Source: Nitrosopumilus sp.
Lineage (GTDB): Archaea; Thermoproteota; Nitrososphaeria; Nitrososphaerales; Nitrosopumilaceae
Assembly (NCBI GenBank): GCA_965223425.1
Contig: OZ245003.1
Location: 2,400,001 to 2,464,000 of the forward strand
DNA length: 64,000 bases
Direction: 5' to 3'
In this document: positions 6,970 to 51,608 of the stretch, piece by piece
Position numbering within the stretch: the stretch's first letter is position 1
Layout: each line of letters begins with the position of its first letter
Program-made: the position numbers and the translations under genes
Notes under the pieces: generated by a model
The model's database searches: none
The model's input: the letters and a program-made list of their open reading frames with translations, nothing else
What the model was told of the DNA's origin: nothing

Positions 6970-8280
6970 ATGTTCAGTATTTTGTATACGCGAACCAGAA
7001 ATACCAGTATTTTGGGAGATTATGTGGCCAAAATCGGCCAGAACGGCCTCGACTTTTATTCAGACGAGAGGTGGCAGCAGGTCAAGGAGGCAGCGGAGGC
7101 GCACTCGTTCTTCCACTGGGATCTGGAGTTTCCCGACATATTTTATGGTACAGACGGCAAGCGGAAAAAGAATCCCGGGTTTGATGGTGTGGTTGGGAAT
7201 CCTCCGTATGGTGCAAAGATATCAAAAAAAGAACAGGAATATCACAAGACAAAACTATCAAAAGTGGGCAGTACAGATACCGCACAACTAATGATTCATG
7301 CAGCTTGCAATTTATTATCCAAGTTCGGACATCATGGATTCATTGTTCCAAAAGCATTGGTTTTTGCTTCAAATTGGAAAAAAATCAGAGAATTCATCAC
7401 AGATGATCTATCAATTCTGATGGATTGTAAAAAGGTATGGAAAGATGTTAAGCTTGAGCAAGTGATTTACATCTATGAAAACAATTATGAGAAAAAATCC
7501 TATCTTGCTGGATCACGAATTGGCCAAAATCTTGTAGCAGATACAGAAGTTAATAAAAAAGAATGCATTCCATTTGAGTTTCTAATTAGTGGCATTACAA
7601 GAGATGAGATCAAACTAGGACAGAAAATTTATGAAAAATCCCAGAAGCTAAAAAAATATATCAACAATAGTCGTGGGTGTATGCTACAAAGTAGATTAAA
7701 GAAAAACGGCAACAACAAAGTTATCGGTGGTGCTCAAATTCAGCGATATTATATTACAGAATGTTTGAAAGGCTATTTGGATACTAAAGACATAGACAGT
7801 GATAAAGCATATGTTAAGTGGAATTCAATTCTTGCACAAAGAATTGTTGCACATATTGACAGTCCAACAGATCATCTAAAAATCACTGCAACAATACCGC
7901 CAAATATTGATTTCGTTATATTAGATACAATAAATCAGATTACCGTGAATAAGATCAACCCACTGTATGTTTTGGGGCTTTTAAATTCTAAGATAGTAAA
8001 TTGGTACGCATACAGGTTTATTTTTGCCAAAGCAATTAGAACAATGCAGTTGGATAATCCTACAACTGACAGAATCCCAATTATTGTAAACGAAGAAAAA
8101 GCAGTGATTGATAGGGTAAAAAAATTACTCAAATTATACTCTGTGAAATACCAGAATAAATCAACAGAAAACTACCCAAGCATAACAACCGAAGAAAATA
8201 AGCTGAATCATTTATTCTATAAAATATTTAGTTTAACGAGTGATGAAATTTCAATGGTAGAAGAATCAACTCCTAGGTGA
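6970..8280 (+). CDS. C-terminal part of a type IIG/Eco57I-like N6-adenine methyltransferase with TaqI-C-like target recognition domain; N-terminus absent
   Basis: FFHWDLEFPDIF...GFDGVVGNPPY (motif IV), GFIVP, YVLGLLNSKIVNWY and RIPI; no SAM-binding motif I or nuclease domain seen upstream. Confidence 0.8.
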   Translation: MFSILYTRTRNTSILGDYVAKIGQNGLDFYSDERWQQVKEAAEAHSFFHWDLEFPDIFYGTDGKRKKNPGFDGVVGNPPYGAKISKKEQEYHKTKLSKVGSTDTAQLMIHAACNLLSKFGHHGFIVPKALVFASNWKKIREFITDDLSILMDCKKVWKDVKLEQVIYIYENNYEKKSYLAGSRIGQNLVADTEVNKKECIPFEFLISGITRDEIKLGQKIYEKSQKLKKYINNSRGCMLQSRLKKNGNNKVIGGAQIQRYYITECLKGYLDTKDIDSDKAYVKWNSILAQRIVAHIDSPTDHLKITATIPPNIDFVILDTINQITVNKINPLYVLGLLNSKIVNWYAYRFIFAKAIRTMQLDNPTTDRIPIIVNEEKAVIDRVKKLLKLYSVKYQNKSTENYPSITTEENKLNHLFYKIFSLTSDEISMVEESTPR

Positions 8281-8468
8281 TTTCAGATAACAAGTTTGCG
8301 ATGATCTAAACTGTCTAAAATAAAAAAAGGGTAAGTGTTTAGGTTCATGCGTAAAATTACTCATTATGGTGTTGTGATAAGCGTGAAAATTCAAGGATCT
8401 AAACACGCACAAAAAAGGTACCTATTTTTAGTCTGTTTGAGAGCATATTTAGATTAACTGATGAAACT

Positions 8469-9626
8469 TTAGAATAGTTTTTTCTGAAATCTTGGTTCTA
8501 GATGTTTTTTAACAACGGTATCCATATCATGCTTATCTTTCAAATAATCTCTAACAGAATTAGAATCAATATTATCATGAAGATTTTTGAATTCGGATCG
8601 TGTTCTTACATTTTCGTGTACCCTTGAAAGATATTTTGGTCGGTTATTTTTCCAATCTGATTCTGTTAGAGTATTGGTTGACATTTTTTCAAATAATTCT
8701 TCTAGTTTAGGATCTCTGAAAAATACCTGTTTTTCTTGTTGTGCATCAAATTTGTTGCTTTGCGGTTCGACTATGGGAGTAACTAGATCGTTTTTGCAGA
8801 ACAGTCTGATTTTTTTGTTAATATTTCCAGCCCTGCCCCCACTTCCAGTGTACCCTTCTACTACAAGATCAGCTGTGAAAAATGATCCATAGTGAGGAGC
8901 AGACACATTGTAATTTGCTTCGCTGTATAGGGCTCTTGGGACATCAACCATTGTTATTGCTTGCTTTTTTTTGTCATGTATAGTTTCAAAATTATCCATA
9001 ATATGATCATAGGCTTTGTTTGCACTAGGATATTGAGCAAATTTCAGTGCGATAAGAGGAATATCTCTATTACCAATTTTTAGACAGTTATCAACTTGTT
9101 TTTCAAAAATTGAGGTTTCTTCCTTGAGATCTATAACAGGAATTAGTTGCAGTCCTTGCTTAGTAACTTGGGCATTCATCTCAATTACATTATCTACAGT
9201 AGGGAGAACGATGGATTCTAAACTTAGTTGATTTGCCAAGTTACAAAAGAATCTAATGTAATCAATCCTTTTTTTTCTGGTGTCAAGTTGTTCCATGCTT
9301 AGAGTGGTTAATGAGGGATAAAGTAAAGTCAATGAATCAGGATCTATTCTGTTCTGAATTGATTTGAATTTGTTTAGTACTTCTCCCAAATAACCATTCT
9401 TTGTTAAAACGTCATTCAGTTTGCCAGGATTTAGGCTCTCTTGAATCATAAAGGATTTTGAAGACCTAGTGAGCGGAATGTCTGCCCCAATCTCGTTTTT
9501 AGCATTTAGATCATACCTGTTTACTAATCTGTTTGGAGTATCGATCGTTCCATTTGTGTGTCTTATTGTAAGAGTGGAGAGGTCATTGAAATTGTCTCGA
9601 GAGTGTGGAACTACAGAAATTACCAT
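8469..9626 (-). CDS. Hypothetical protein with tRNA-guanine transglycosylase (TGT)-like N- and C-terminal signatures
   Basis: N-term LTIRHTNGTIDTP resembles TGT (TPHGxIETP); C-term RVHE...I...DYL resembles the TGT terminal helix; ATG at 9626 overlaps the upstream stop. Confidence 0.5.
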   Translation of the reverse strand: MVISVVPHSRDNFNDLSTLTIRHTNGTIDTPNRLVNRYDLNAKNEIGADIPLTRSSKSFMIQESLNPGKLNDVLTKNGYLGEVLNKFKSIQNRIDPDSLTLLYPSLTTLSMEQLDTRKKRIDYIRFFCNLANQLSLESIVLPTVDNVIEMNAQVTKQGLQLIPVIDLKEETSIFEKQVDNCLKIGNRDIPLIALKFAQYPSANKAYDHIMDNFETIHDKKKQAITMVDVPRALYSEANYNVSAPHYGSFFTADLVVEGYTGSGGRAGNINKKIRLFCKNDLVTPIVEPQSNKFDAQQEKQVFFRDPKLEELFEKMSTNTLTESDWKNNRPKYLSRVHENVRTRSEFKNLHDNIDSNSVRDYLKDKHDMDTVVKKHLEPRFQKKLF

Positions 9627-10117
9627 CTGAGATAAGGCACCTTTGTTTCCACTGTGTACTCTGGATAATTTCGATAAACGAACTTCATTATTCCTTGTGT
9701 TGTCCATTCATCCCAATCAGATTTTTTATCTGTTAATTCTTCGAGATCAATGTCTAGTCTCTTTAGTTTTTTAGAAATCGTCCGTTTTCCTGAAGGAGTA
9801 ATAAAATATTGCACACCTTCTCCTTTTCCAGATTTTATTCTAATAAACCCCGAGTTTTTTAGAACCATAATGGAATCCTTGACTGTTTTGCTATATGCCC
9901 CAAATTTATAGGGAAAAAATCCAGGATCTGCCGTGTCTTTTTTAAATAGTGTTTTCCAAGCGAGAAAAACCTGTTTTTGTAATTTTGTGGTGCCTTTTAC
10001 TGGAGATATTGATAATAGCATGAGTGCCAAGTCGCTTCCTAAAAGCAACTCGTCCATTTTCTGGAAGTTATTCAAACTTCCGCTCGTGAACTGAATAGCT
10101 TCTAATTTTCTGGACAT
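9620..10117 (-). CDS. Panacea (DUF4065)/YwgA-like winged-helix protein
   Basis: GTTKLQKQVFL...FFPYKFGAYSKTV...YFITPSG...FVYRNYPEY pattern. Confidence 0.65.
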   Translation of the reverse strand: MSRKLEAIQFTSGSLNNFQKMDELLLGSDLALMLLSISPVKGTTKLQKQVFLAWKTLFKKDTADPGFFPYKFGAYSKTVKDSIMVLKNSGFIRIKSGKGEGVQYFITPSGKRTISKKLKRLDIDLEELTDKKSDWDEWTTQGIMKFVYRNYPEYTVETKVPYLRW

Positions 10118-10668
10118 GTTATTCTATTTCCTCCATATGATAGCCTTAGATAGATCTCATTCTTAATCGAGTCCACAATAACCCAACACATAATTCCTAC
10201 TCCGTGTTTTAGTGAGATTGTAATTTTTTTGCCCATGTGTTCATCTTTACATGGATTCAAACCATCAATCGACCATTTGTTGTAAATTTTATCCAAGCAG
10301 TTTTTAATACATTCAATTAATTTGATCATATCTACTTCTTCATATTGAACACTTTTCAGATGGGTTGCAAGTACATAAGGAATAATGACTCGTTTTGAAG
10401 AATCAGAGTGAATTGCTTCTAAAGGAGGTGTAGGATTGTTTGGATCTGCGGCATCAAGATTTCTACAAATAATACAGAATTTAGTAGTGTAAGTAGAATT
10501 AAATTCGTTTGTTCTTGTGATTGAACCTAAAGATCCCCTAAATTTTTCGTATGAAACCTCGGGTCTGAATTGATTATTTCTGATATTCCTGAATACTCGT
10601 TGTAAATTTTCTAGTTGGTTACTTCCACAAAATCTACAAAATATTTCAGCCAAAGTATTTCTTTTCAA
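10102..10668 (-). CDS. Hypothetical protein with two CxxC pairs
   Basis: CRFC and CIIC; overlaps the downstream gene by 16 bp. Confidence 0.6.
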   Translation of the reverse strand: MKRNTLAEIFCRFCGSNQLENLQRVFRNIRNNQFRPEVSYEKFRGSLGSITRTNEFNSTYTTKFCIICRNLDAADPNNPTPPLEAIHSDSSKRVIIPYVLATHLKSVQYEEVDMIKLIECIKNCLDKIYNKWSIDGLNPCKDEHMGKKITISLKHGVGIMCWVIVDSIKNEIYLRLSYGGNRITCPEN

Positions 10669-11043
10669 AGTATTACAATGATATAATTAAACAGGTTGGG
10701 TTGGAAACGCACATTTCTTATGATGCTATTCCGTTCACATACAAATACCTAGAAAAGATTGGAAATTCTGCAAAGATCAAGTCTGTCCTCCGTTATGTAG
10801 ACCAAAATTTTCAATCGCCTTCTCAATCCTCTTGATTAGTTCAATTTGTTCCTGTCTCACCACTCAACAATATGGAAGAGACTCGTTTTAATATGTTTAT
10901 AAAAAAATGGTAGGGATATTGTAGGCGTCCCAATCGCCTTCTGCCGTCGTTTGCCAAAGGTATCCGCACCCACAGTGGGCTCCGCTCCCATCCGGTCCAT
11001 TACCCTTAGAGTGCTTAAATTAGATTCTAGGCATGGAAAACGT

Positions 11044-11694
11044 ATGTTAAAAATTGATTTGAAGACAATATCTCAGGACGGTATCCCCTATGAAAAGTTT
11101 CTTGACGGCATAAAAAATGCTGGAACAAAAAGACACTATACAAAATACCTGCAACGATTTCTTGGAGAGATACCACCAAGTCTTTACGAGGAATTGAACA
11201 GTAAAATTCCAAATGAGACTGTAGAGTCACAAGCTGAATGTTTTGTGTTGTTGTGCAAGTCTCACAGCATAATTGGTACCAACATTATTTCTGAATACAT
11301 CAAACATTATGTCAAACTAGTAGAACAGGGCAGTATTAGTCCCAACACAATTCCAAACTATATCAAGCCAATCAAAGTTTTACTTGATACAAACGATGCC
11401 GCACTGCATTGGAAGCGTTTGTATCACCTGTATCCAAGACCTGTAAACTCTCAAGACAGGGCGTACACCAGAGAAGAGATCCAAAAGATGCTGTCACTTG
11501 CACATGACCTTACAGACAAGGTAATTTTGACCATGTTTTCTTCTGCAGGGTTTAGACTAGAGTCATGGGATTACTTTACGTGGCAGGATGTAGTTTTTTT
11601 CAGACACGAGGATGATACATTCAAAGGAGCAGCACTGCTGGTGTATCGCGGAGACCCTGAAAGCTACTGGACATTTATCACACCGGAGGCATGT
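11044..11694 (+). pseudogene. Tyrosine integrase N-terminal part, truncated by IS copy 2
   Basis: DRAYTREEIQKML, SSAGFRLESW (first catalytic Arg), LVYRGDPESYWTFITPEA; no HxxR/Tyr half after the IS. Confidence 0.8.
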
Positions 11695-40762: not shown

Positions 40763-41212
40763 TTGGATTTGCAAATTTTATCAGAATTATCTAACGACGC
40801 GTCAATTTCTGTTCCACGGCTGTCAAAAAAGATCAAAGTTAACTCGTCAGTGATATATTCAAGAATCAAAAGACTGACCAAAAGAAAGCTAATTGAGCGG
40901 TTTACAATCATTGTTAATGATGCTGAACTTGGCTATAGTGTCAAAGCTCTAACTGGAATTAACATGGACACAAAAAAACGCGATCACATAATTGACGAAT
41001 TATTCAAAATTGATGGGGTACGGGAAGTGGCAGAAGTTACAGGCAGGTTTGACATATTGATAACCATGTATTCAAAATCACTAGATCAAATGCACAAAAT
41101 GGTTTCTGAACGAATAGGCAGGATTGAAGGAATCCAGTCCTCAGAGTCGTTTATTGAAATGAAATCACGTGCCAAAGTAATGCCATATATGTCATCAAAG
41201 GATAGTGACTAG
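40763..41212 (+). CDS. Lrp/AsnC family transcriptional regulator
   Basis: N-terminal HTH and EVTGRFD AsnC domain. Confidence 0.9.
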   Translation: MDLQILSELSNDASISVPRLSKKIKVNSSVIYSRIKRLTKRKLIERFTIIVNDAELGYSVKALTGINMDTKKRDHIIDELFKIDGVREVAEVTGRFDILITMYSKSLDQMHKMVSERIGRIEGIQSSESFIEMKSRAKVMPYMSSKDSD

Positions 41213-42144
41213 TGTTGCAAAAGCAAAAGTCAGAATCCCGTGTTGCTGTATATTATGAATTAACAAAGCCAAAGATCTGGTATTTGCTGGTGTTTACCGC
41301 ATTTGGTGCAGCGTTAACAGCGTCTAATATTTACGGCATTGAAATTTCTCTGGCCACATGGATGCTAATGCTATTTTCAGTTGCGGCAGGTTCGGCTGCT
41401 GCCAACACTTTGACAAACTACCATGATAGAGATATTGATGCAATAATGGAAAGAACTAAGAACAGACCTTTACCATCAAAAAGAATCTATCCGGCAGTAA
41501 AGGCAAGAAATTTTGGATTTGTACTAGCTGGAATATCTCTAGTTTTGGCATTTGGAATTTCATTTACAACAACGTTAGAACAGGGCGTGTGGGCAACCAC
41601 GTTCATCGCATTTGGATTGATAAACAATATTCTTGTTTACTCGTATGCGTTAAAACGAAGTTCAAGAACCAACATAATTTTAGGAGGATTGTGTGGGGGG
41701 TCACCACCTATGATAGGATGGGTGGCTGTGAGCATGTCAGATTTGTGGACAATGGGTCTTGCAATGGCAGGACTGGTGTTTATTTGGATTCCAATGCACA
41801 TTTGGGCATTGACTTTACATTTCAAAGAGGATTATAACAAAGTAAATGTGCCAATGTTGACTGCAGTGCAATCAGAAAAGACGTCAGCAAGGGCAATTGC
41901 AGCTTCAACTGTCGTAATGGTACTATTTTCAATTGCTCCATTCTTTATAACAACTGAAAATGGGGAAGAAATGGTAGGTAGCATATATCTATGGACTGCA
42001 ATTGCATCAGGTGCACTAATGACTGCATTGTCAATTTGGGTCATAGCTAAACCCATGGAAAAAGCCTCCTGGACCTTGTTCAAATTTTCCAGTCCTTACT
42101 TGGCAGTATTGTTTATTGCGTTAATGGTAGATACTGGATTATAA
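41212..42144 (+). CDS. cyoE: Protoheme IX farnesyltransferase (heme O synthase)
   Basis: ELTKPKI, DRDIDAIMERTKNRPLP and WIPMHIWAL..DY...VPML. Confidence 0.94.
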   Translation: MLQKQKSESRVAVYYELTKPKIWYLLVFTAFGAALTASNIYGIEISLATWMLMLFSVAAGSAAANTLTNYHDRDIDAIMERTKNRPLPSKRIYPAVKARNFGFVLAGISLVLAFGISFTTTLEQGVWATTFIAFGLINNILVYSYALKRSSRTNIILGGLCGGSPPMIGWVAVSMSDLWTMGLAMAGLVFIWIPMHIWALTLHFKEDYNKVNVPMLTAVQSEKTSARAIAASTVVMVLFSIAPFFITTENGEEMVGSIYLWTAIASGALMTALSIWVIAKPMEKASWTLFKFSSPYLAVLFIALMVDTGL

Positions 42145-43183: not shown

Positions 43184-44014
43184 TTATTTTTTTAATTTTA
43201 CAACTCGGAAAACTTTACAGTCACAAACAGAACAGGTTCCCCTAACCGCAGGTCTGCCGTTTTTCAGTGGTTTCTTCTGGATTTTTAATTTTTCTTTTGG
43301 TTTTACATTTGGCACAGTAAGCTTGTGGGGAATCTGATCCTGAAGTGCCTTTAGCGGTTGTCGAGCGAGTAAGTTTTTTCTCAGCATTATCAAGTTTATC
43401 AGTTTGTTTTTCTAATGTTTGGATAATTTCATGTTCAATATCAATATCCTCGAGTTTTCCAATTTCTTTTTCGAATTTCTCATCCTTTGATAATTGTTCG
43501 GTTGATTCATCTGATGACGGATTTGATTGAGCAGACAACACATCTTCTAATTCATCAATTTCTTTCTGTAAATCATCAAACTGTGCTACTTTTCAGTAGT
43601 AGCTTCTTCTAATTCTGGTGTCGGTTCAAAGCCTTTTGGCAGAGTACCTTGTGTAGTCGAAGAATCTGGTTTTGATTCAAATGTTAATTCCTTAACTGGT
43701 TCAGGTGGCGGTACTGACGTTTCAGGCAAGTCACCAAGATAATCCAGTTTGACTTTGTTTCCATCAATTCGTAGATAGGGATTACCTGCAATTGAAAAAG
43801 TTCGAATTTTGTGCCCCTTTTTCCAAGAATCTTGCCCACTGTAAATTGTAATGTAGCTCAGTCCATTTTGTATATCAGAGCATATAGTCAAGCGATCTAC
43901 CAACTCTCCTTCAGTAATTCCTTGATCAGTATCTTGATGACGTATGACAGCATAGATTAAATGATCAAAATCAAAACTTGCCTCCGAAATTAAATAATCG
44001 GCCCAGTGACTCAT
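43184..44014 (-). pseudogene. DUF3892-like N-terminus + acidic linker + DUF5679-like Zn ribbon, two frameshifts
   Basis: WADYLIS...PYLRIDGN..LDYLGDLP; frameshift near 43590; AYCAKCKTKRKIKNP continues in another frame as LKNGRPAVRGTCSVC. Confidence 0.75.
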
Positions 44015-44452
44015 TATAAAAAATAAGAATTGTTTTCTAGTAAATAAGCAAGATCAATAAAATACACTGGAAGGTTCGCGGATGTTTTCAACAAATTATG
44101 AGTTTTCGAAGAAGTGTAAAGATAGGCGGGTTTTTGGAAAGAACCAAACATAATAGGGAATTCTGATAGATAGAAATTAGACCCCGCACTGTATGTGTGG
44201 ACATTGCCTTGAAAAGTCTCGAGAGCTTAAGTGTAGCGGCTCTCTAACGTAACACTATAACCCTCTAATGTAACGCCATCTCAAAATCGGTGAAAACCCT
44301 CGAAGATGTACCAGTATAGTCTCTAGGACTGCTAAATTTGAATCAATAAAATATTGATGATTGTTTGATCGGGTAAAAATTAACAAACAAAAAATAATAA
44401 CATTATACACCATCTTGATGTAATTATGCAACCAACCCTGAAAAATCACTCC

Positions 44453-44974
44453 ATGAAGACTTTGCCAGATCTTGTAGAACCAAACATGAGCGTGATATTT
44501 GTTGGAACAAATCCAGGAGAAAAATCCGCAAGAATTGGCCATTATTTTGCAGGAGCAAGCAACATGTTTTGGAAGTTATTACATGAATCAAATTTAACAG
44601 GTGAAAGACTGACTACCGAATTAGATAGAAAAATGGTACAGTATGGTTATGGGCTAACAGATGTTGTTAAACGACCTACACGTTCTACTACAGAACTCCG
44701 AAGAAATGATGGAAATGGAGCTAAGAACCGATTATATTGCATTATAGAAAAAAATGAACCTGATGTGGTTGCTTTTGTTGGAAAAACTGGCTATAGGTAT
44801 TATCTAGATGAAAATAATAAAAAGGTAAAATATGGTTCTCAAAAATTTAAAATTGGAAAATCATCTGTGTATCTTCTCCCTTCTACCAGCGGCCAAAGTT
44901 TTGCAGATACAAGCTACAAGGAGAAATTATACTGGTATAAGAGGCTAAGAACATATGTTCATGCATATTCATAA
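44453..44974 (+). CDS. mug: Mismatch-specific uracil/thymine DNA glycosylase (MUG/TDG, UDG family 2), copy A
   Basis: LPDL....VIFVGTNPG..S...GHYFAG.SN.FWKLL, GLTDVVKRPT, AFVGK and LPSTSG; catalytic Asn retained. Confidence 0.9.
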   Translation: MKTLPDLVEPNMSVIFVGTNPGEKSARIGHYFAGASNMFWKLLHESNLTGERLTTELDRKMVQYGYGLTDVVKRPTRSTTELRRNDGNGAKNRLYCIIEKNEPDVVAFVGKTGYRYYLDENNKKVKYGSQKFKIGKSSVYLLPSTSGQSFADTSYKEKLYWYKRLRTYVHAYS

Positions 44975-45071
44975 TTATAAACATTCAGAAAATATCGATC
45001 ATTATTTTTTGAATTGTGATCACAATTCTGTAATAGGCTTTTTATAGGTCATTTTTGTAAAAACGTCCAAG

Positions 45072-45548
45072 TTGACGGCTTCATCTCTTGCAGGTTTTTT
45101 CAACGGAATCAATAAAACTCTTTCAATGGATCAATTTGATGATAAACTAAAAGTTCAAAAAATAACTTACCTTGCCCAAGAATCTGGGATTGATCTAGGG
45201 TATGAATTTGAGTGGTATATACGAGGTCCCTATTGCAAACAAGTTTCTGAAGATGCACATACAGCTATAGATGAAAACTTAACTGAACACCCAGATGATG
45301 TTGGTTTAAATCAAGAACAAGTTAGAGAGTTTGGAGAAATGTTAAGACCTCATCTTAACAAGACAGATTGGTTAGAAATTGCAGCATCAATATTATATCT
45401 AAAAAATGAAAATTATGCAAATGAAGAGTTAGACAATATTATTGGTTACCTATTAGAAGATCTTACTTATGGTTACAAAAATTTTGAAGAAACTTTAATT
45501 CGTAGGGTTTTAGCAGATATGCTAAGATTGAACATACTAACAGCATAA
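45072..45548 (+). CDS. Panacea (DUF4065)/YwgA-like winged-helix protein
   Basis: KVQKITYLAQESGIDLGYEFEWYIRGPYCKQV...WLEIAASILYL. Confidence 0.65.
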   Translation: MTASSLAGFFNGINKTLSMDQFDDKLKVQKITYLAQESGIDLGYEFEWYIRGPYCKQVSEDAHTAIDENLTEHPDDVGLNQEQVREFGEMLRPHLNKTDWLEIAASILYLKNENYANEELDNIIGYLLEDLTYGYKNFEETLIRRVLADMLRLNILTA

Positions 45549-45592
45549 CATAATAGTTAAAACCGTATTCTCGATCATGAGATTGTCTTAAT

Positions 45593-46597
45593 TTGTTTGA
45601 TCAAAAATGGAAAGAAATTCTTCAAGATGTAAAAGATAATGGCATTACCGTTGAGCGAGGTGAAAAAAGAGCATTCCGAGAGAAAATTTCATATCAGTTT
45701 CAAATAGATGACCCAAGAGATAGAATAATTTTTAACAAAAGTTTTGGTTTGAACATATTCCAATGTATAGGACAATTTTTGTGGATTACTCAAGGTAGTT
45801 TCAATGCTGAAACAATCAAATATTATGCCCCATTTTCTTCAAAGTTTTCTTCTGATGGATTCAAGATGATTGGTGCTTACGGACCCAGATTATTTGGAAT
45901 CCATCATTTAGAACAAATCAAACATGTTATCAATGTATTAGATGGAGACCCATCCAGAAGAAGGGCTGTTGCATCAATTTATCTTCCCCAGTTTGATCAG
46001 CACAAAACAGCTGATGAGGTACCTTGTACATTAAATTTACAGTATTTAATACGAGAGCAAAAAGTTCAATCAGTTACATATATGAGAAGTCAAAATGCCT
46101 TTAGACTTCTACCTTATGATGTATTTTTGTTTACAATGGTTCAAGAGTATGTCAATGCAGTTTTGACTACTGCTCATAATACAGAATTAGGAACATACAA
46201 TCATTATAGCGGTAGTTTTCATATTTATATGGACGAGTTAGAATTAATTGAAAATGTCTTAGAGGATGATACCAATGAAACTTTTCAAATGAAATCTATG
46301 CCATCAAAGAATGTTATTCTCAGATTACAAAAATTAAATAGATTTGAATCAATAGTTCGAACTATCATCTCTTCACATGAAAAAAGAAGTAATCCTATTG
46401 ATTTTGATTTTCTATTTGAACTATGTAAAGAATGGTTTGATGATTCTTATTGGAAGCAATTTGCTTTATTATTGATTTGTTATGGTGCAATAATAATGAA
46501 AAATAATGAAAATAAAGATTATGCAATATCATTATTAGATCCAATTTACAAGCATATGGTACAAATGTATATTAACAAACAAGCAAATTCAAGTTAA
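45593..46597 (+). CDS. Divergent thymidylate-synthase-fold enzyme (dCMP/CMP hydroxymethylase-like)
   Basis: GAYGPRL, DPSRRRA, VPCT (catalytic Cys), YMRSQNAFRLLPYD and HYSGSFHIY. Confidence 0.85.
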   Translation: MFDQKWKEILQDVKDNGITVERGEKRAFREKISYQFQIDDPRDRIIFNKSFGLNIFQCIGQFLWITQGSFNAETIKYYAPFSSKFSSDGFKMIGAYGPRLFGIHHLEQIKHVINVLDGDPSRRRAVASIYLPQFDQHKTADEVPCTLNLQYLIREQKVQSVTYMRSQNAFRLLPYDVFLFTMVQEYVNAVLTTAHNTELGTYNHYSGSFHIYMDELELIENVLEDDTNETFQMKSMPSKNVILRLQKLNRFESIVRTIISSHEKRSNPIDFDFLFELCKEWFDDSYWKQFALLLICYGAIIMKNNENKDYAISLLDPIYKHMVQMYINKQANSS

Positions 46598-46599
46598 AA

Positions 46600-47130
46600 T
46601 TAAATTGAATTAGAATATTTACGAAGTGAACGATACCAATCTAATTTTTCATAGTACTTTGTATCTGCATAACTTTGTCCACTTGTTGAAGGTATAAGAT
46701 AAATTCGTATGTCACCGTACTTGTATTGAAATCCATATTCTAAATTAGAATATTGATTTTGTGAATATATTCTAAAACCCATTTTCCCAACAAATGCCAC
46801 TATTTTAGGCTTGAACAAATCCAAGGTTCGATTAAGCCTTCTAGTGCTTTTAATCGTATATTGCTGTTTTATGTCCGAAACGGTTCTAGTAGGTATTTTA
46901 ACAATATCCGTTAAACCATAACCATACTTCAACATTTTTCTGTCATCTTCAGTTTTTAACAACACGTTAGTTAGGTTTGATTCATACATTAGTTTCCAAA
47001 ACACATTAGAATGTCCTGCAAAATAATGGCCAATTTGTGAGGAACGTACACCTGGGCTAGTACCTACAAAAAGAATTTTCAATTTTTTTTTAAGTATGTC
47101 TGGTAATGGCTTTAGTTTTTCACTCAACAA
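46600..47130 (-). CDS. mug: MUG/TDG-family DNA glycosylase, copy B (catalytic Asn replaced by Ser)
   Basis: LPDIL....ILFVGTSPG..S.QIGHYFAG.SN.FWKL, GLTDIVK.PT and IPSTSG. Confidence 0.88.
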   Translation of the reverse strand: MLSEKLKPLPDILKKKLKILFVGTSPGVRSSQIGHYFAGHSNVFWKLMYESNLTNVLLKTEDDRKMLKYGYGLTDIVKIPTRTVSDIKQQYTIKSTRRLNRTLDLFKPKIVAFVGKMGFRIYSQNQYSNLEYGFQYKYGDIRIYLIPSTSGQSYADTKYYEKLDWYRSLRKYSNSI

Positions 47131-47179
47131 CTATCTGCAAAAGTACTCATAAAAAAAAGATATCATAAAGGTACAGATT

Positions 47180-47401
47180 TTAGAGATCTTCTGCTTTGAA
47201 AGGATCTGTTAATTCCATGTTTGGAAATTCAATCCACCGCATTTTCCATTGACTTTCATCTCTCAAAATGTTGAGTGTTGCATCACATTTCTTACATTTG
47301 TAGATCAGATTACTTCTTCTAGTGAAATTGATCAATTTCTTGATTACATATCTCTGAGGTTTGTTCTTGAATCCACAATCTCCACAGGTAATTGTAATCA
47401 T
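47180..47401 (-). CDS. Small zinc-ribbon protein
   Basis: CGDC...CKKC. Confidence 0.6.
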   Translation of the reverse strand: MITITCGDCGFKNKPQRYVIKKLINFTRRSNLIYKCKKCDATLNILRDESQWKMRWIEFPNMELTDPFKAEDL

Positions 47402-47500
47402 AGGTTATTGTATTATCTTTCTGATCTATAACTTGTATTGATCAACTCTGTTGACCAAAAATCAATTTTTTCATAGTGGTCTTAAAAAATTAGGATCAAT

Positions 47501-48088
47501 TTGTGGGATATGAAAAGTAGTTCATCCCAGTCCTCGCTGTACAGTGCCAGGAGCACCTGTGGGTGCTACAAGCATACAAGATGCAGTCAGGGATCAGACC
47601 GGAATAAATATCCCCACAACACCATTCACAGGATATTGAGGGACGAAGATCTGGCATCAGAAGAGTCAAGGAAGGGCAAAAAGCGAAGATGGATCCGCTA
47701 CGAGCGCACGTATTCAAACTCCCTGTGGCATACTGACTACAAGCTGCTTGATGACGGCAGGTGGTTCCTGTGCTACGAGGATGACGCCTCCAGGTTCGTG
47801 ACAGGGTATGGCATGTTTGATAATGCCACTACAGAAAACGCACTCAGGGTGCTAGATCAGGCCATAAGGAACCATGGCAAGCCTGCGGCAGTCATGATGG
47901 ATCACGGCTCGCAGTTTTATGCAGACGAAAAGGAATCTCAAAAAAAGGATGCAAGCAAGTTTGAAAAAAGGCTAGTCGAGCTTGGAATAAAACAAATTCT
48001 TGCAGTAGGACGCCAACAAACCAATGGAAAGCTGAAGCGCCTGCACGGCGAAATACAGCGCAAGCTTCCGGAGTTGTGGCAATCATGA
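47501..48088 (+). pseudogene. IS481-like rve/DDE transposase remnant
   Basis: RYER..SNSLWHTDY, EDDASRF, DHGSQF and QTNGKLKR (the E of GKxER is lost); 5' part frameshifted. Confidence 0.8.
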
Positions 48089-48277
48089 GTATGAAACCAA
48101 GTAGTAGGGGGCGCCTATCTTTACAATTTCTCAAAATCATGAAAATTAATCAAAACATCCTATAACTTTCCAGTGTAAAAATTTTCATTCAAGCCCCCAT
48201 TAACTTCAGAACCCAATAAAATAATCAATTAGGCTCAAAAAATAAGGTTATAATTGGTTTAACAGTGTGATGAACAG

Positions 48278-49942: not shown

Positions 49943-51274
49943 TTATTTGAAATATTTCTCTAGTTTGATACTGCCAAGTTTTGGAATTTTTGCCAATTCA
50001 AATCCCTCTGGGCGTTTTGAGAGAGAGTGGGTAGCATCAATGCCCATTTTTGCAGTGCGTAGTTTCTTTTGATCACTGGAAGGATCAAGACTGGAACCAC
50101 GCACGTTTTTTATGATTATCAAATCTTTATCTGCTTGAAACCTAGTGGCCATTGCATATTCTACTGACTCTGCATCGTTAGGATCAATATCTTCATCAAC
50201 TACAGTTACTTGCTTTAGAGAGCGATGGGATTCGAATGTTTTTTTGATGATTTGTTTAGGATCAGACTCGTTTTTCTTTTTTATTTGTACAACTGCATGC
50301 AACCAGTTACATCCACCGTTAGTCATTGAGACTTGCTGTGTCTGAGGGTAACTTTTCTTCAGTTCTCCATTTAATTTTGACTCTATGGGCATGCCCATCA
50401 ACAGCCTATGTTCTGAATAACCAGACAGAACATCATGGAAGACAGGATTGTTTCTAAAATACAGGTTTTCAAGCTCAAAGACGGGCTGAGATCTTCTGTG
50501 ATCGTATGTCTGAAGCATCTCAACCATCCATTCGGGATGGGTTTTGTCACGAAGAATTTTTCCCTCCATTACAATTTCAGCATCTGATGGCACATCCAAT
50601 CCTGTAAAGGGGAGTTTTGCCAAAGTTAGCTTTCCATTCAAGAGAGAATTGGCAATATCAATCTCATCTTTCCCCCATTCAGCTTGATATGCACCTGCAA
50701 TGGAAATTGCTGGATGAACTCCGACAGTAAGCGCGATTTTCAAATCATCGCCGTGTTCTTTGGCATCAACAAAACATCGGTGCAGATGACGTCCTTCTAC
50801 CATTCTAATTGAAAAATGAGTTTTATCAATTGGCATCAATCTATGAAAAGACGAATTTTGTTTTCCAGTTTCAGGATTTTTAGCATAGGCAATCGAGGAT
50901 GTGATAAATGGTCCAGATTCCTTTTGAAAGTGGGTCACAATAGGCATGGAGAAGATATTTTTTGACTTGTTTTCCATGAATTTGCCTGATGGGATAATTT
51001 TTGGCTTTTTAGCTTTTTTTATTGCTGAAATAATTTTTTGATGGATGCCATCCTCTGTTCCTCCAACTGCAAGAGCAAATCTCTTTCTAGTTCCCACCAA
51101 ATTAGCAACTAAACTAAAACTGCTTTCCTTGATATTTTCAAATAAAACAGCATGGGAGCCGTCAACTTTTGCGGTAATTCCTGCAATTTCAAATTTTGTA
51201 GAAACTTTTGTTCTTATAATTTTAAGATCCTTACCCTTTTTTATTTGGGAAATATAGTTTCTTAGATCACTCAT
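49943..51274 (-). CDS. ubiD: UbiD-family decarboxylase (possibly archaeal mevalonate-pathway anhydromevalonate phosphate decarboxylase)
   Basis: NSSFHRL, AEIVMEG, VVDEDID, AMATRFQ, GSSLDPS and KMGIDAT. Confidence 0.88.
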   Translation of the reverse strand: MSDLRNYISQIKKGKDLKIIRTKVSTKFEIAGITAKVDGSHAVLFENIKESSFSLVANLVGTRKRFALAVGGTEDGIHQKIISAIKKAKKPKIIPSGKFMENKSKNIFSMPIVTHFQKESGPFITSSIAYAKNPETGKQNSSFHRLMPIDKTHFSIRMVEGRHLHRCFVDAKEHGDDLKIALTVGVHPAISIAGAYQAEWGKDEIDIANSLLNGKLTLAKLPFTGLDVPSDAEIVMEGKILRDKTHPEWMVEMLQTYDHRRSQPVFELENLYFRNNPVFHDVLSGYSEHRLLMGMPIESKLNGELKKSYPQTQQVSMTNGGCNWLHAVVQIKKKNESDPKQIIKKTFESHRSLKQVTVVDEDIDPNDAESVEYAMATRFQADKDLIIIKNVRGSSLDPSSDQKKLRTAKMGIDATHSLSKRPEGFELAKIPKLGSIKLEKYFK

Positions 51275-51608
51275 TCTCAATCATCTCAATGATCTCAGAC
51301 ATTAAGGCTTTTGCAGTTTTTGGTTCCAATTCCTTTTGAATAAAAGCAGAAACCAAAGCAATCCCCCTCATCCTGGTACTAATCCGTTCAGACACAAGTT
51401 TAAGAAAAAGAGATTCGGTTTTTGATGGGATAACAGTAGTCGTAACCGGGGCAGGGCCAGTTGCTAAAGAAGCAACAACAGAGCCAATCTTGTTAGATCC
51501 CTCCGTTACAGATACAAAATATCCATTTTCAAACTTTTGAATCTGTAAAGAAAAACCGCGACTCTCCAAATTTACCATTTTTTGGAAAAATCCATTTGGA
51601 GATGTCAA
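51267..51608 (-). CDS. Conserved hypothetical protein (proteasome assembly chaperone 4-like)
   Basis: 113-aa ORF coupled to ubiD. Confidence 0.6.
   Translation of the reverse strand: MTSPNGFFQKMVNLESRGFSLQIQKFENGYFVSVTEGSNKIGSVVASLATGPAPVTTTVIPSKTESLFLKLVSERISTRMRGIALVSAFIQKELEPKTAKALMSEIIEMIENE

Follow-up and report, generated by a model that had tools for sequence, protein, structure and literature searches.

DNA-marking toxins such as DarT and antiviral defence by DNA glycosylases are both recent discoveries, and in all cases known to us the virus already carries the mark, or an enzyme places it straight onto DNA. DarG combines direct binding of the toxin with enzymatic reversal of the DNA base modification. 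Dcm and Vsr represent another established pattern, in which a modifier travels with the matching mismatch-repair enzyme. Characterised MUG/TDG enzymes remove U, T, 5hmU, 5fC and 5caC; none is known to us that excises 5hmC. Excision of modified viral bases reportedly serves as a UDG-superfamily defence (Brig1, PMC11078745; Brig3; Getz et al. 2025), and in the Brig3/BapA system the base excised is reported to be 5hmC, a substrate made by the partner enzyme (bioRxiv 10.64898/2026.02.25.707755). MilB, the partner of the thymidylate synthase (TS)-fold enzyme MilA in the mildiomycin pathway, is reported to be an N-glycosidase acting on hmCMP (PMC5175136, PMC4081090). For such TS-fold enzymes the published determinants are a nucleophilic Cys, an Asp that selects cytosine and a Ser/Arg pair that selects deoxyribose (PMC5175136 sections 7-8), the Asp that replaces ThyA Asn177 giving cytosine specificity (PMC5175136 section 8). 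Methylene-THF is activated by a conserved Glu (EcTS E58, T4 E60, MilA E68) (PMC6400193).

The cassette described here lies in the window, the whole 64-kb stretch of Nitrosopumilus DNA that was analysed. On balance we favour the view that it is a conflict module, of the defence or toxin-antitoxin type, in which a controlled dCMP modifier is coupled to glycosylases acting on its DNA product. ORF calling places five genes between 44426 and 47401: mugA (44426-44974, plus strand, 182 aa), a 158-aa helical/winged-helix protein (45072-45548, plus), a TS-fold enzyme (45593-46597, plus, 334 aa), the convergent mugB (46600-47130, minus, 176 aa), whose stop codon is separated from that of the TS-like gene by 2 nt, and a Zn-ribbon-like ORF (47180-47401, minus, 73 aa). 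These calls, with the Pfam and NCBIfam matches, agree with the gene content and order given in the initial annotation, which also rightly described the block as AT-rich: the cassette GC of 0.314 is the minimum over all 2976-nt windows of the 64 kb (median 0.394). The start given there for mugA, 44453, is not that of the longest ORF, yet it matches an internal ATG ('MKTLPD') where orthologues begin and is likely the true start. The small Zn ribbon is present as an ORF with CxxC...CxxC in its translation. It falls outside the set of genes that is conserved: no homologue at E<=1 occurs among the ORFs of any other locus searched. It also had no family match in Pfam, NCBIfam or PADLOC.

The TS-like enzyme matches Pfam Thymidylat_synt (PF00303) at 2e-14, with 53.8 bits against a cut-off of 24.3, and its best PDB sequence match is MilA (1.3e-29, versus 1.3e-9 for ThyA). 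Its predicted model (pLDDT 90.7) aligns with MilA in Foldseek at TMq 0.80-0.82 over ~333 columns, compared with ~0.55 for canonical TS, and the two proteins share the TS fold and the C-terminal helical domain of MilA. Within the family, C145, R123, R165, D176, H210 and Y212 are each found in 30 of 30 sequences and S166 in 29 of 30. The Cys nucleophile, the cytosine-specifying Asp and the His/Tyr sugar contacts of MilA and of T4 gp42 dCMP hydroxymethylase are also present here. MilA differs in having Ala176 and Lys133', associated with its preference for ribose, at the positions that map to S166 and R123 in a sequence alignment of the two proteins, where the TS-like enzyme has the deoxy type Ser/Arg. 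Given this Ser/Arg pair in place of Ala/Lys, we rejected a MilA-type CMP (ribo) hydroxymethylase. The homologues provide an internal control: the sole one adjoining a 5-hmdU DNA kinase has Asn, and both Breoghania homologues carry the Lys/Ala of MilA.

A housekeeping ThyA, which the initial annotation thought unlikely, was rejected as well. Asp occupies the Asn177 position, the best NCBIfam equivalog match reaches 68.2 bits against a cut-off of 174.55 (the others 35-47 bits, cut-offs 108-405), and ThyX is encoded elsewhere in the genome, in which the cassette gene is the sole PF00303 match. From its residues we predict that the TS-like enzyme is a dCMP C5-hydroxymethylase of the MilA/T4-dCH type, specific for cytosine and deoxyribose, so that the altered pyrimidine first postulated for this locus would be 5-hydroxymethyl-dCMP. 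MilA, T4 dCH and ThyA all carry the cofactor-activating Glu, whereas the TS-like enzymes mostly have Gln or His at that position (residue 61: Q in 19 of 30 sequences, H in 9 and E in 2, with Q in the window protein). The enzyme may be slow, may use another C1 donor or may catalyse a different reaction. Its partners also differ. MilA is accompanied by MilB, and T4 dCH by a kinase, dCTPase and glucosyltransferase set, none of which partners the TS-like enzyme; MUG glycosylases and a DarG-like protein are found instead.

The 158-aa protein has an N-terminal helical part with a QKxxYxAQ...GPY motif, followed by a C-terminal winged helix. Four independent signals, from weak to good, argue that it is a homologue of the DarT-binding C-terminal domain of DarG. 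Partial matches to DarG were found in NCBIfam (8.5e-5) and PADLOC (1.1e-5), a profile of the family retrieved 7yk3_B from the PDB at E 0.001, and the predicted model (pLDDT 93.6) matched 7yk3_D in VIA (Z 10.6, rmsd 3.5, 139 residues aligned; next match Z 5.1). The model also matched 7yk3_B in Foldseek (prob 0.99, TM 0.58), and the QK..Y.A...GPY motif is common to DarG and this protein. The protein had been described as a Panacea/YwgA-like winged helix. The winged helix stands. As to Panacea, the protein has no match at E<=1 to PF13274 (DUF4065), the domain of that family, and we favour homology to DarG instead. Panacea (DUF4065/PanA) is likewise a small, multi-copy family found in short operons, with a sequence motif that looks alike, and of the Atlas clusters that have any Pfam family the nearest (score 0.82) has SocA_Panacea in 13% of members, which we note as no more than a lead. 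The DarG-like family is itself multi-copy: it has matches in 40 of 300 other genomes, as many as 12 being listed for a single one, and the partners of the paralogues are mostly unannotated.

Structure prediction of the TS-like enzyme together with the DarG-like protein scored 0.55 (runs 0.55, 0.54 and 0.59), with 0.00 for the best of three controls, at least 87% contact agreement between runs and partner pLDDT of at least 87. In calibration, 58 of 80 solved complexes passed, as did 2 of 110 mismatched pairs. Passing scores of 0.60 or less came from just seven of the 80 solved complexes, and from both of the mismatches. These calibration counts hold only roughly here, the alignments being self-made. 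The model gives weak support to the suggestion that the two proteins bind each other.

Both mugA and mugB encode UDG-superfamily proteins of family 2 (PF03167 at 1.1e-17 and 6.6e-16) that are most similar to MUG and TDG. For the mugA product the E-values are 5.9e-21 with E. coli MUG (1mug) and 6e-19 with human TDG, for that of mugB 3.7e-21 with TDG, and both align end to end with the E. coli and human enzymes (1e-18 to 1e-21). Against the NCBIfam MUG equivalog they score 106 and 87 bits, below the cut-off of 144. The PS(T/S)SG loop is kept in both, and TDG Asn191 is replaced by Asp in both. The GxNPG motif is kept in mugA, where the catalytic Asn is retained as GTNPG in 12 of 12 distinct A-type sequences. 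The window mugB has GTSPG, as do 18 of the 21 distinct B-type sequences, the others being one GTRPG, one GTNPG and one motif-less fragment; the catalytic Asn is lost in 19 of the 21. MUG and TDG are lone repair genes, unlike mugA and mugB, which form a conserved pair tied to a predicted nucleotide-modifying enzyme. A family-4 UDG is encoded elsewhere in the genome.

The four-gene set recurs in 21 distinct (<97% identity) Nitrosopumilaceae/archaeal-clade loci with unrelated flanks, and its grouping is more than chance given this recurrence. Co-location of the homologues elsewhere, which the initial annotation had named as a test of its proposal, is borne out by the assessable loci. The winged-helix gene is directly upstream of the TS-like gene in 17/17, a convergent mugB follows downstream in 18/19, and 12/14 have mugA close by. 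In 17 of 18 loci the distance between the 3' ends of mugB and the TS-like gene is between -29 and +7 nt. The MUG, winged-helix and TS-like families are the only ones common to all nine genome loci. Among 300 other Nitrosopumilaceae genomes the cassette occurs in five, and in all five TS-positive genomes close MUG and winged-helix genes share the contig. Within Nitrosopumilaceae, the clade of close MUG proteins (E below 1e-40) is found solely in cassette-bearing genomes, a tally in which unpublished genomes are included solely among the weak matches. All four genes are intact in at least four genome loci, and the cassette is often partly decayed. In one genome (G002) the TS-like gene is intact although an IS interrupts the winged-helix gene and mugB is absent, so the enzyme alone is not lethal there. 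A distant pair from a soil metagenome (L154), in which a TS-like gene (35% identity, His at position 61) faces a convergent MUG gene, adjoins an AbiJ-like gene and an integrase.

In the window the cassette sits on an inserted island of ~4.2 kb (44062..48236) that is missing from syntenic relatives. By blastn against two same-genus genomes, homology of the left flank stops at 44050 (G007) or 44061 (G021) and that of the right flank resumes at 48237, and in G007 the two flanks are 10 bp apart; tblastx against four relatives gave the same picture. Repeat search and alignment revealed an imperfect 66-nt inverted repeat at the island ends, whose left arm (44063..44128, plus) pairs with the right arm (48112..48177, minus) at 74% complementarity, with exact blocks of 10, 9 and 14 nt. 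Its ungapped score is 23.5, whereas neither 1000 shuffles nor 488 real windows gave more than 13, and the sole other genome match of the right arm is the left arm. The transposase remnant reported beside the block is an rve/IS481 fragment (47501-48088, plus; IS481 NCBIfam 1.2e-31, Pfam rve 1.8e-11) that covers only profile positions 91-242 of 284. It retains the rve core, lacks the N-terminal part and has three other genome copies of ~566 bp at 91-92% identity. The frameshifted gene said to flank the block on the other side was not recovered, as the gene directly upstream (43586-44014, minus) has an intact N-terminus, which can be aligned to that of a homologue from a relative. Perhaps a pair of overlapping ORFs at 43184-43541 (minus) was meant. 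The neighbours of the island are small unannotated genes that relatives also conserve; the stretch they belong to is variable and has conserved genes of housekeeping type at its borders, and it is not a defence island. The cassette is self-contained, horizontally mobile and sporadic.

We suggest that the TS-fold enzyme would add a one-carbon unit to C5 of dCMP, most likely producing 5-hydroxymethyl-dCMP, and that in healthy cells it would be kept off by binding of the DarG-like protein, a homologue of the DarT-silencing domain. If this restraint were lost, for example upon virus infection, host kinases would make the modified triphosphate, which would enter replicating DNA. The MUG/TDG glycosylases could then act on the 5-substituted pyrimidine, either 5hmC or 5hmU after deamination. 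MugA would excise the modified base, creating abasic sites at which replication stops, and the Asn-less MugB may be a weak or non-catalytic binder of the lesion or AP-site. No nucleotide kinase or glycosyltransferase lies inside the island by ORFs and Pfam, in agreement with the initial annotation; with neither a dNMP kinase nor a dCTPase on it, the scheme has to assume that dCMP is available and that other enzymes turn the product into a triphosphate. We put forward this specific mark-and-excise mechanism only tentatively. It is possible, but again doubtful, that the cassette makes its own restriction target: the released hydroxymethylase would poison the deoxynucleotide pool, 5hmC would mark new, chiefly viral, DNA, and the MUG/TDG pair would turn the marks into abasic sites. 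With similar caution, this could be read as base-excision restriction against viruses with ordinary DNA, checked by the DarG-like binder. In favour of the conflict module we counted the linkage of the genes, the mobility of the island, the MilA-like sequence, fold and residues of the enzyme, the DarG-like signals and the precedent of Brig3/BapA. We counted against it the limit of MUG/TDG enzymes with respect to 5hmC, as generally understood, the replaced catalytic Glu, the kinase and dCTPase missing from the island, the Asn-less mugB, the G002 locus, the blank PADLOC result, the weak score of the predicted complex and the setting outside a defence island.

Alternatively, the cassette might combine modification with dedicated deamination repair, following the logic of Dcm-Vsr. 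In this scenario, 5hm-dCMP or 5m-dCMP is supplied, the DNA of the carrier is partly 5hmC or 5mC and thereby shielded from nucleases of viruses or competing elements, the MUG/TDG paralogues repair G:5hmU or G:T after deamination, and the winged-helix protein tunes the enzyme. In its favour, G:U and G:T mispairs are the substrates of the closest solved relatives, E. coli MUG and human TDG, and give them their names; the known pairing of a modifier with its repair enzyme and the stable carriage of four intact genes in at least four genome loci also speak for it. We nevertheless consider it unlikely: it leaves unexplained the resemblance of the partner to a toxin-binding antitoxin and the loss of the catalytic Asn in one glycosylase, the cassette has no linked nuclease or other protein that would read the mark, substantial replacement of C would call for a kinase or dCTPase that it does not have, and it is rare and often partly decayed. 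In a further alternative, the enzyme would be a toxin whose product in DNA is itself harmful, and the antidote would have two parts, a binder resembling the DarG C-terminal domain and mark-removing glycosylases in place of the DarG macrodomain. The binder is indeed homologous to the DarG domain crystallised with DarT, and DarG unites binding with reversal of the mark. This mark-and-reverse arrangement seems quite improbable, since 5hmC in DNA is not known to be toxic on its own, the cassette lacks both macrodomain and DarT, and in G002 the TS-like gene persists with mugB gone and the binder gene disrupted.

The glycosylases could also defend directly by attacking 5hmU, 5hmC or derivatives already present in viral DNA, with the TS-like enzyme and its binder doing something else, for instance sensing viral nucleotides or competing for them. 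Brig1, Brig3 and the work of Getz et al. 2025 are the reported precedents, and the distant soil pair adjoins an AbiJ-like gene. There is little to recommend this explanation when the coupling to a TS-fold enzyme with fully conserved substrate-binding and nucleophile residues is left unexplained, and when the close MUG clade was found, within Nitrosopumilaceae, solely in cassette-bearing genomes. The closest solved relative of the enzyme, MilA, is partnered with an hmCMP N-glycosidase in the accounts cited, which raises the prospect of a pathway to a small molecule, as with MilA/MilB or BcmA/BcmB; the enzyme would make a hydroxymethylated cytidylate, which the UDG-fold proteins would hydrolyse to free 5-hydroxymethylcytosine, a metabolite or antimetabolite precursor. 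Another distant homologue, of the Gln type (L155), shares its operon with genes for a Nuc_deoxyrib_tr-family protein, a P-loop kinase and an NTPase. The chances of such a pathway here appear remote, given that the family has the deoxyribose-type Ser/Arg and not the Ala/Lys of MilA, that Pfam identified no Nuc_deoxyrib_tr protein, methyltransferase or other tailoring gene in the cassette, and that we know of no UDG-fold enzyme acting on mononucleotides.

If the favoured conflict module is real, a nucleotide-level pyrimidine modifier and glycosylases under antitoxin-like restraint would represent a new logic of self/non-self discrimination. As far as we know, few candidate defence systems are specific to ammonia-oxidising archaea, which are globally important in the nitrogen cycle, and this would be one of them. 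Enzymologists may also take an interest in a natural TS-fold enzyme that lacks the 'universal' catalytic Glu and in a TDG/MUG paralogue that naturally lacks the Asn, both of them possible 5hmC tools.

A literature search found no described system of this composition, as the initial annotation had supposed; PADLOC recognised no known system in the cassette, and PADLOC 2.0 (2023) gave no match to a glycosylase system. Like DarTG, the cassette is concerned with base-level DNA marks. DarTG has the DarT ADP-ribosyltransferase and the macrodomain of DarG, neither of which had a Pfam or NCBIfam match in any cassette protein. Unlike DarTG, the putative toxin of the cassette is predicted to act on the free nucleotide, and the reversal or processing enzymes are separately encoded glycosylases. 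Brig3-BapA is likewise reported to couple a UDG-superfamily glycosylase to a base-altering enzyme, with 5hmC as the pivotal base. Brig3 is reportedly only weakly similar to UDGs, whereas the cassette glycosylases belong plainly to family 2. BapA is reported to remove glucose from viral DNA once it has replicated, whereas the modifier of the cassette would make the base at the nucleotide level. Marking at that level could make viruses with ordinary DNA targetable.

The genes mugA, wHTH, TS-like and mugB make up a cassette that is a discrete mobile insertion in the 2.64 Mb host genome (99.99% complete). ORF calling bore out the genes proposed in the initial annotation: two glycosylase genes, mugA (44426-44974, +, 182 aa) and mugB (46600-47130, -, 176 aa), with between them the wHTH gene (45072-45548, +, 158 aa) and a thymidylate synthase-like gene (45593-46597, +, 334 aa). 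Orthologues of mugA begin at an internal Met corresponding to 44453, the start originally chosen. The stop codons of TS-like and mugB are separated by two bases, as had been stated. Downstream are a CxxC...CxxC ORF, described initially as a Zn ribbon (47180-47401, -, 73 aa), and an rve-domain fragment (47501-48088, +, 195 aa). Pfam and NCBIfam identify both mug products as UDG, the TS-like product as Thymidylat_synt and the transposase as a partial IS481. The cassette, with a GC content of 0.314, is indeed AT-rich, the lowest among equally sized stretches of the window. The frameshifted gene said to border it was not confirmed, because its immediate upstream neighbour is intact. What was meant may be a pair of overlapping ORFs at 43184-43541 (-), 69 and 99 aa long, which occupy different frames and of which one has a Cys-rich end.

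The conserved genes flanking the site (41212-42144 and 49943-51280) are 7.8 kb apart in the window and, from their coordinates, 3.6-6.5 kb apart on one contig in 15 genomes of the same genus. Nucleotide comparison with two relatives bounds the insertion at about 44062-48236, and in one of them (G007) the two flanks of the island are only 10 bp apart. At its ends the island carries an imperfect inverted repeat of 66 nt (44063-44128 and 48112-48177), whose ungapped score of 23.5 compares with at most 13 among 1000 shuffles and among 488 real windows. No terminal inverted repeats were found around four other cassette copies, and the repeat arms of the window are absent from other cassette loci. 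The IS481-like fragment (47528-48088) has three copies of about 566 bp in the genome (91-92% identity) and one shorter copy, at G000:C1:1254590, 311645, 2132626 and 308726; all share one end point, and the 66-nt repeat is absent from each.

A search of 5.8 billion proteins with the TS-like protein returned 88 clusters at E<=1e-10. On genome contigs, TS-like loci were found in 8 Nitrosopumilaceae and 17 bacterial cases, and metagenome contigs added 14 archaeal-clade loci, two of which duplicate genome loci. The distinct archaeal-clade set, window included, comprises 21 TS-like sequences at <97% identity. Counting only contigs on which a feature can be judged, the wHTH gene lies directly upstream of TS-like in 17/17 loci (including a copy split by an IS in L016), mugB is convergent and downstream in 18/19, and an A-type (mugA-like) MUG gene is nearby, in either orientation, in 12/14, the exceptions being L011 and L012. 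In 17 of 18 loci the spacing between the 3' ends of TS-like and mugB falls between -29 and +7 nt. All-against-all comparison found no other gene family common to more than four of nine loci, and the one that reaches four is an IS. The co-location of homologues, proposed initially as a check, is therefore observed for all four genes. The originally listed Zn ribbon falls outside the conserved set and can be ruled out as part of the system, since no homologue was found among the ORFs of any other locus examined.

The TS-like gene is present in 5 of 300 other Nitrosopumilaceae genomes sampled, and all five have close MUG and wHTH genes on the same contig; in a sixth genome, G140, only the wHTH gene and part of mugA remain. 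The MUG and wHTH tallies take in the unpublished genomes G312, G285, G263, G137 and G152, which have weak non-cassette matches only. Decay is frequent: L018 has a split TS-like gene, L014 has mugB as two ORFs, and in L016 (the G002 locus, also L010) ISs have inserted, one of them in place of mugB. At 6248-10577 of L016, a wHTH remnant and an intact TS-like gene lie between two copies of one IS (ORFs of 157-163 and 114 aa), an arrangement like a composite transposon, and a large transposase-like ORF separates this segment from mugA.

The closest solved relative of the TS-like protein by sequence is the CMP 5-hydroxymethylase MilA (1.3e-29, compared with 1.3e-9 for the best thymidylate synthase). 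The model (pLDDT 90.7) superposes on full-length MilA, including the C-terminal helical domain, with a TMq of 0.80-0.82, and reaches about 0.55 with canonical TS. As described for MilA (PMC5175136), the determinants are a Cys nucleophile, Asp186 for cytosine versus Asn for uracil, and Ala176/Lys133' for ribose versus Ser/Arg for deoxyribose. Mapped via the MilA alignment, C145, R123, D176, H210 and Y212 are each present in 30/30 sequences of the cassette family and S166 in 29/30. The enzyme is thus predicted to be a dCMP-specific C5-modifying enzyme, with a hydroxymethyl or methyl product. The residue rule behaves sensibly across 106 homologues: 90 have the dCMP pattern, two Breoghania genes have the Lys/Ala of MilA, and the sole homologue adjoining a 5-hmdU DNA kinase has Asn. 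Position 61 departs from the pattern: MilA, T4 dCH and ThyA have a cofactor-activating Glu there, whereas the 30 family sequences have Gln (19, including the window protein), His (9) or Glu (2). The Ser/Arg residues rule out a MilA-type ribo enzyme. A housekeeping ThyA, thought unlikely from the outset, is ruled out by Asp at the ThyA Asn177 site, equivalog scores below the cut-off and a ThyX elsewhere in the genome. The latter consists of two Thy1 matches inside one 545-aa open frame (G000:C1:1538141-1539484), which suggests a fused double-domain ThyX. Given this ThyX, the lack of any PF00303 match in the genome besides the cassette gene, and a separate family-4 UDG outside the cassette, the cassette is not housekeeping.

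The products of both mugA and mugB can be aligned along their full length to E. coli MUG and human TDG. GTNPG is found in 12/12 A-type sequences; the 21 B-type (mugB-like) sequences have GTSPG (18), GTRPG (1) and GTNPG (1), and one is a fragment. Both types have Asp at the site of TDG Asn191 and Gln at that of the TDG wedge residue Arg275. Together, these shared residues and the pattern of motifs indicate that the mug duplication is old. The B copy has consistently lost the canonical catalytic residue while remaining under selection.

The wHTH protein has no Pfam match even at E<=1, but partially matches NCBIfam DarG (8.5e-5) and matches PADLOC DarG (1.1e-5). A profile of 24 sequences ranked 7yk3_B first in the PDB (E 0.001), and both share the motif QK..Y.A...GPY. 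By structure, the model (pLDDT 93.6) has a single strong match, to the DarG chain in the DarTG complex (Foldseek prob 0.99, TM 0.58; VIA-align Z 10.6, rmsd 3.5 over 139 aligned residues, with the runner-up at Z 5.1). These comparisons point to a homologue of the C-terminal, DarT-binding domain of DarG. The original wHTH label was half right: residues ~96-158 form a winged helix, but the protein matches the DarG C-terminal domain. A predicted complex of TS-like and wHTH scored 0.55, against 0.00 for the best control, with a calibration only approximate for the alignments used, and lends weak backing to the predicted binding. The family is multi-copy, with matches in 40 of the 300 other genomes and up to 12 in one genome among the matches listed. 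Paralogues often share short operons with ORFs that are small and unannotated, and their neighbours are rarely named by Pfam (ParE, PIN, HTH regulator, IS66, GatB), so that a role as a promiscuous antitoxin is conjectural. In one recurrent operon the wHTH gene is followed by unannotated ORFs of ~90-110 and ~150-165 aa. L120-L124 and L131 exemplify the expansion of this DarG-CTD-like family in Nitrosopumilaceae, and a paralogue in the window's own genome (G000:C1:657907-658263) is two genes upstream of a ParE toxin gene.

No MUG or wHTH gene adjoins TS-like in the 17 bacterial genome loci or in 63 distant metagenome loci. Among 80 IMG/VR loci (of 209 relatives), the only such match is a weak one in L054 (E 8e-4); a virus origin was rejected, as the IMG/VR TS-like genes have <=37% identity and, that match aside, lack MUG/wHTH. 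In a phage collection, the TS-like matches listed reach <=34% identity, and all mugA matches are to enterobacterial MUG-like genes, with 31-33% identity in all but a short match of 41 residues.

Nine bacterial loci from several phyla (L019, L022-L028 and L032, ~7900-11300 in each) share another cassette, also present at L156:4852-8906. In it, a TS-like gene of dCMP type is grouped with aGPT-Pplase3/ADDT (PF18746, 8e-89), a ~105-aa ORF and, in convergent orientation, HTH_3-Peptidase_M78. Its make-up suggests pyrimidine hypermodification, cellular or prophage-borne, under the control of an ImmA/IrrE-type switch. Other bacterial homologues adjoin kinases or a 5-hmdU DNA kinase, and thus the wider TS-like family occurs in DNA-base hypermodification contexts. 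In Streptococcus/Gemella loci (L020, L021, L033, L035), QueA is upstream of TS-like, and after it come a thymidylate-kinase-like gene and another, divergent TS-like ORF. At L155:2585-6368, one operon comprises a Gln-type TS-like gene, a Nuc_deoxyrib_tr-family gene, an HTH gene, an AAA_17 P-loop kinase and NTPase_I-T (DUF84), a putative nucleotide-level pathway unlike the archaeal and bacterial cassettes. One distant soil locus (L154:3474-7645) does repeat the archaeal TS-like/MUG layout: it encodes a TS-like protein of 411 aa (35% identity, His at position 61, N-terminal extension of ~67 aa) convergent with a single Asn-bearing MUG, followed by an AbiJ_NTD4/Abi_C protein and a phage-type integrase.

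The most economical reading of the four-gene unit is a conflict module. The DarG-like binder would restrain the TS-like enzyme, the product of which would reach DNA via the nucleotide pool, where the glycosylases would act on it within DNA. We tentatively favour mark-and-excise as the mechanism, because 5hmC is not known to be harmful unless something cuts at it, because the G002 enzyme survives without mugB where the binder gene is broken, and because 5hmC excision by a UDG-superfamily enzyme, with a base-modifying helper, is an established antiviral mechanism in Brig3-BapA (bioRxiv 10.64898/2026.02.25.707755). The two glycosylases could instead serve deamination repair of a modified genome, which we consider unlikely, and the DarG-like protein recalls DarTG, although a DarTG-like mark-and-reverse scheme seems rather more doubtful. 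A direct Brig-like attack on modified viruses is improbable, and a metabolite route like that of MilA/MilB, despite the resemblance of the enzyme to MilA, is the least probable of these readings.

The statement that no described system has this composition held: full-text searches of the literature turned up no account of the gene combination, and PADLOC 2.0 did not recognise the cassette. Those searches did not extend to supplementary datasets, such as the toxin-partner lists of the Panacea survey, which might already record the combination or a TS-like partner. The parts of the cassette belong to known families; within the literature searched, it is their combination and the logic it implies that are new to description.
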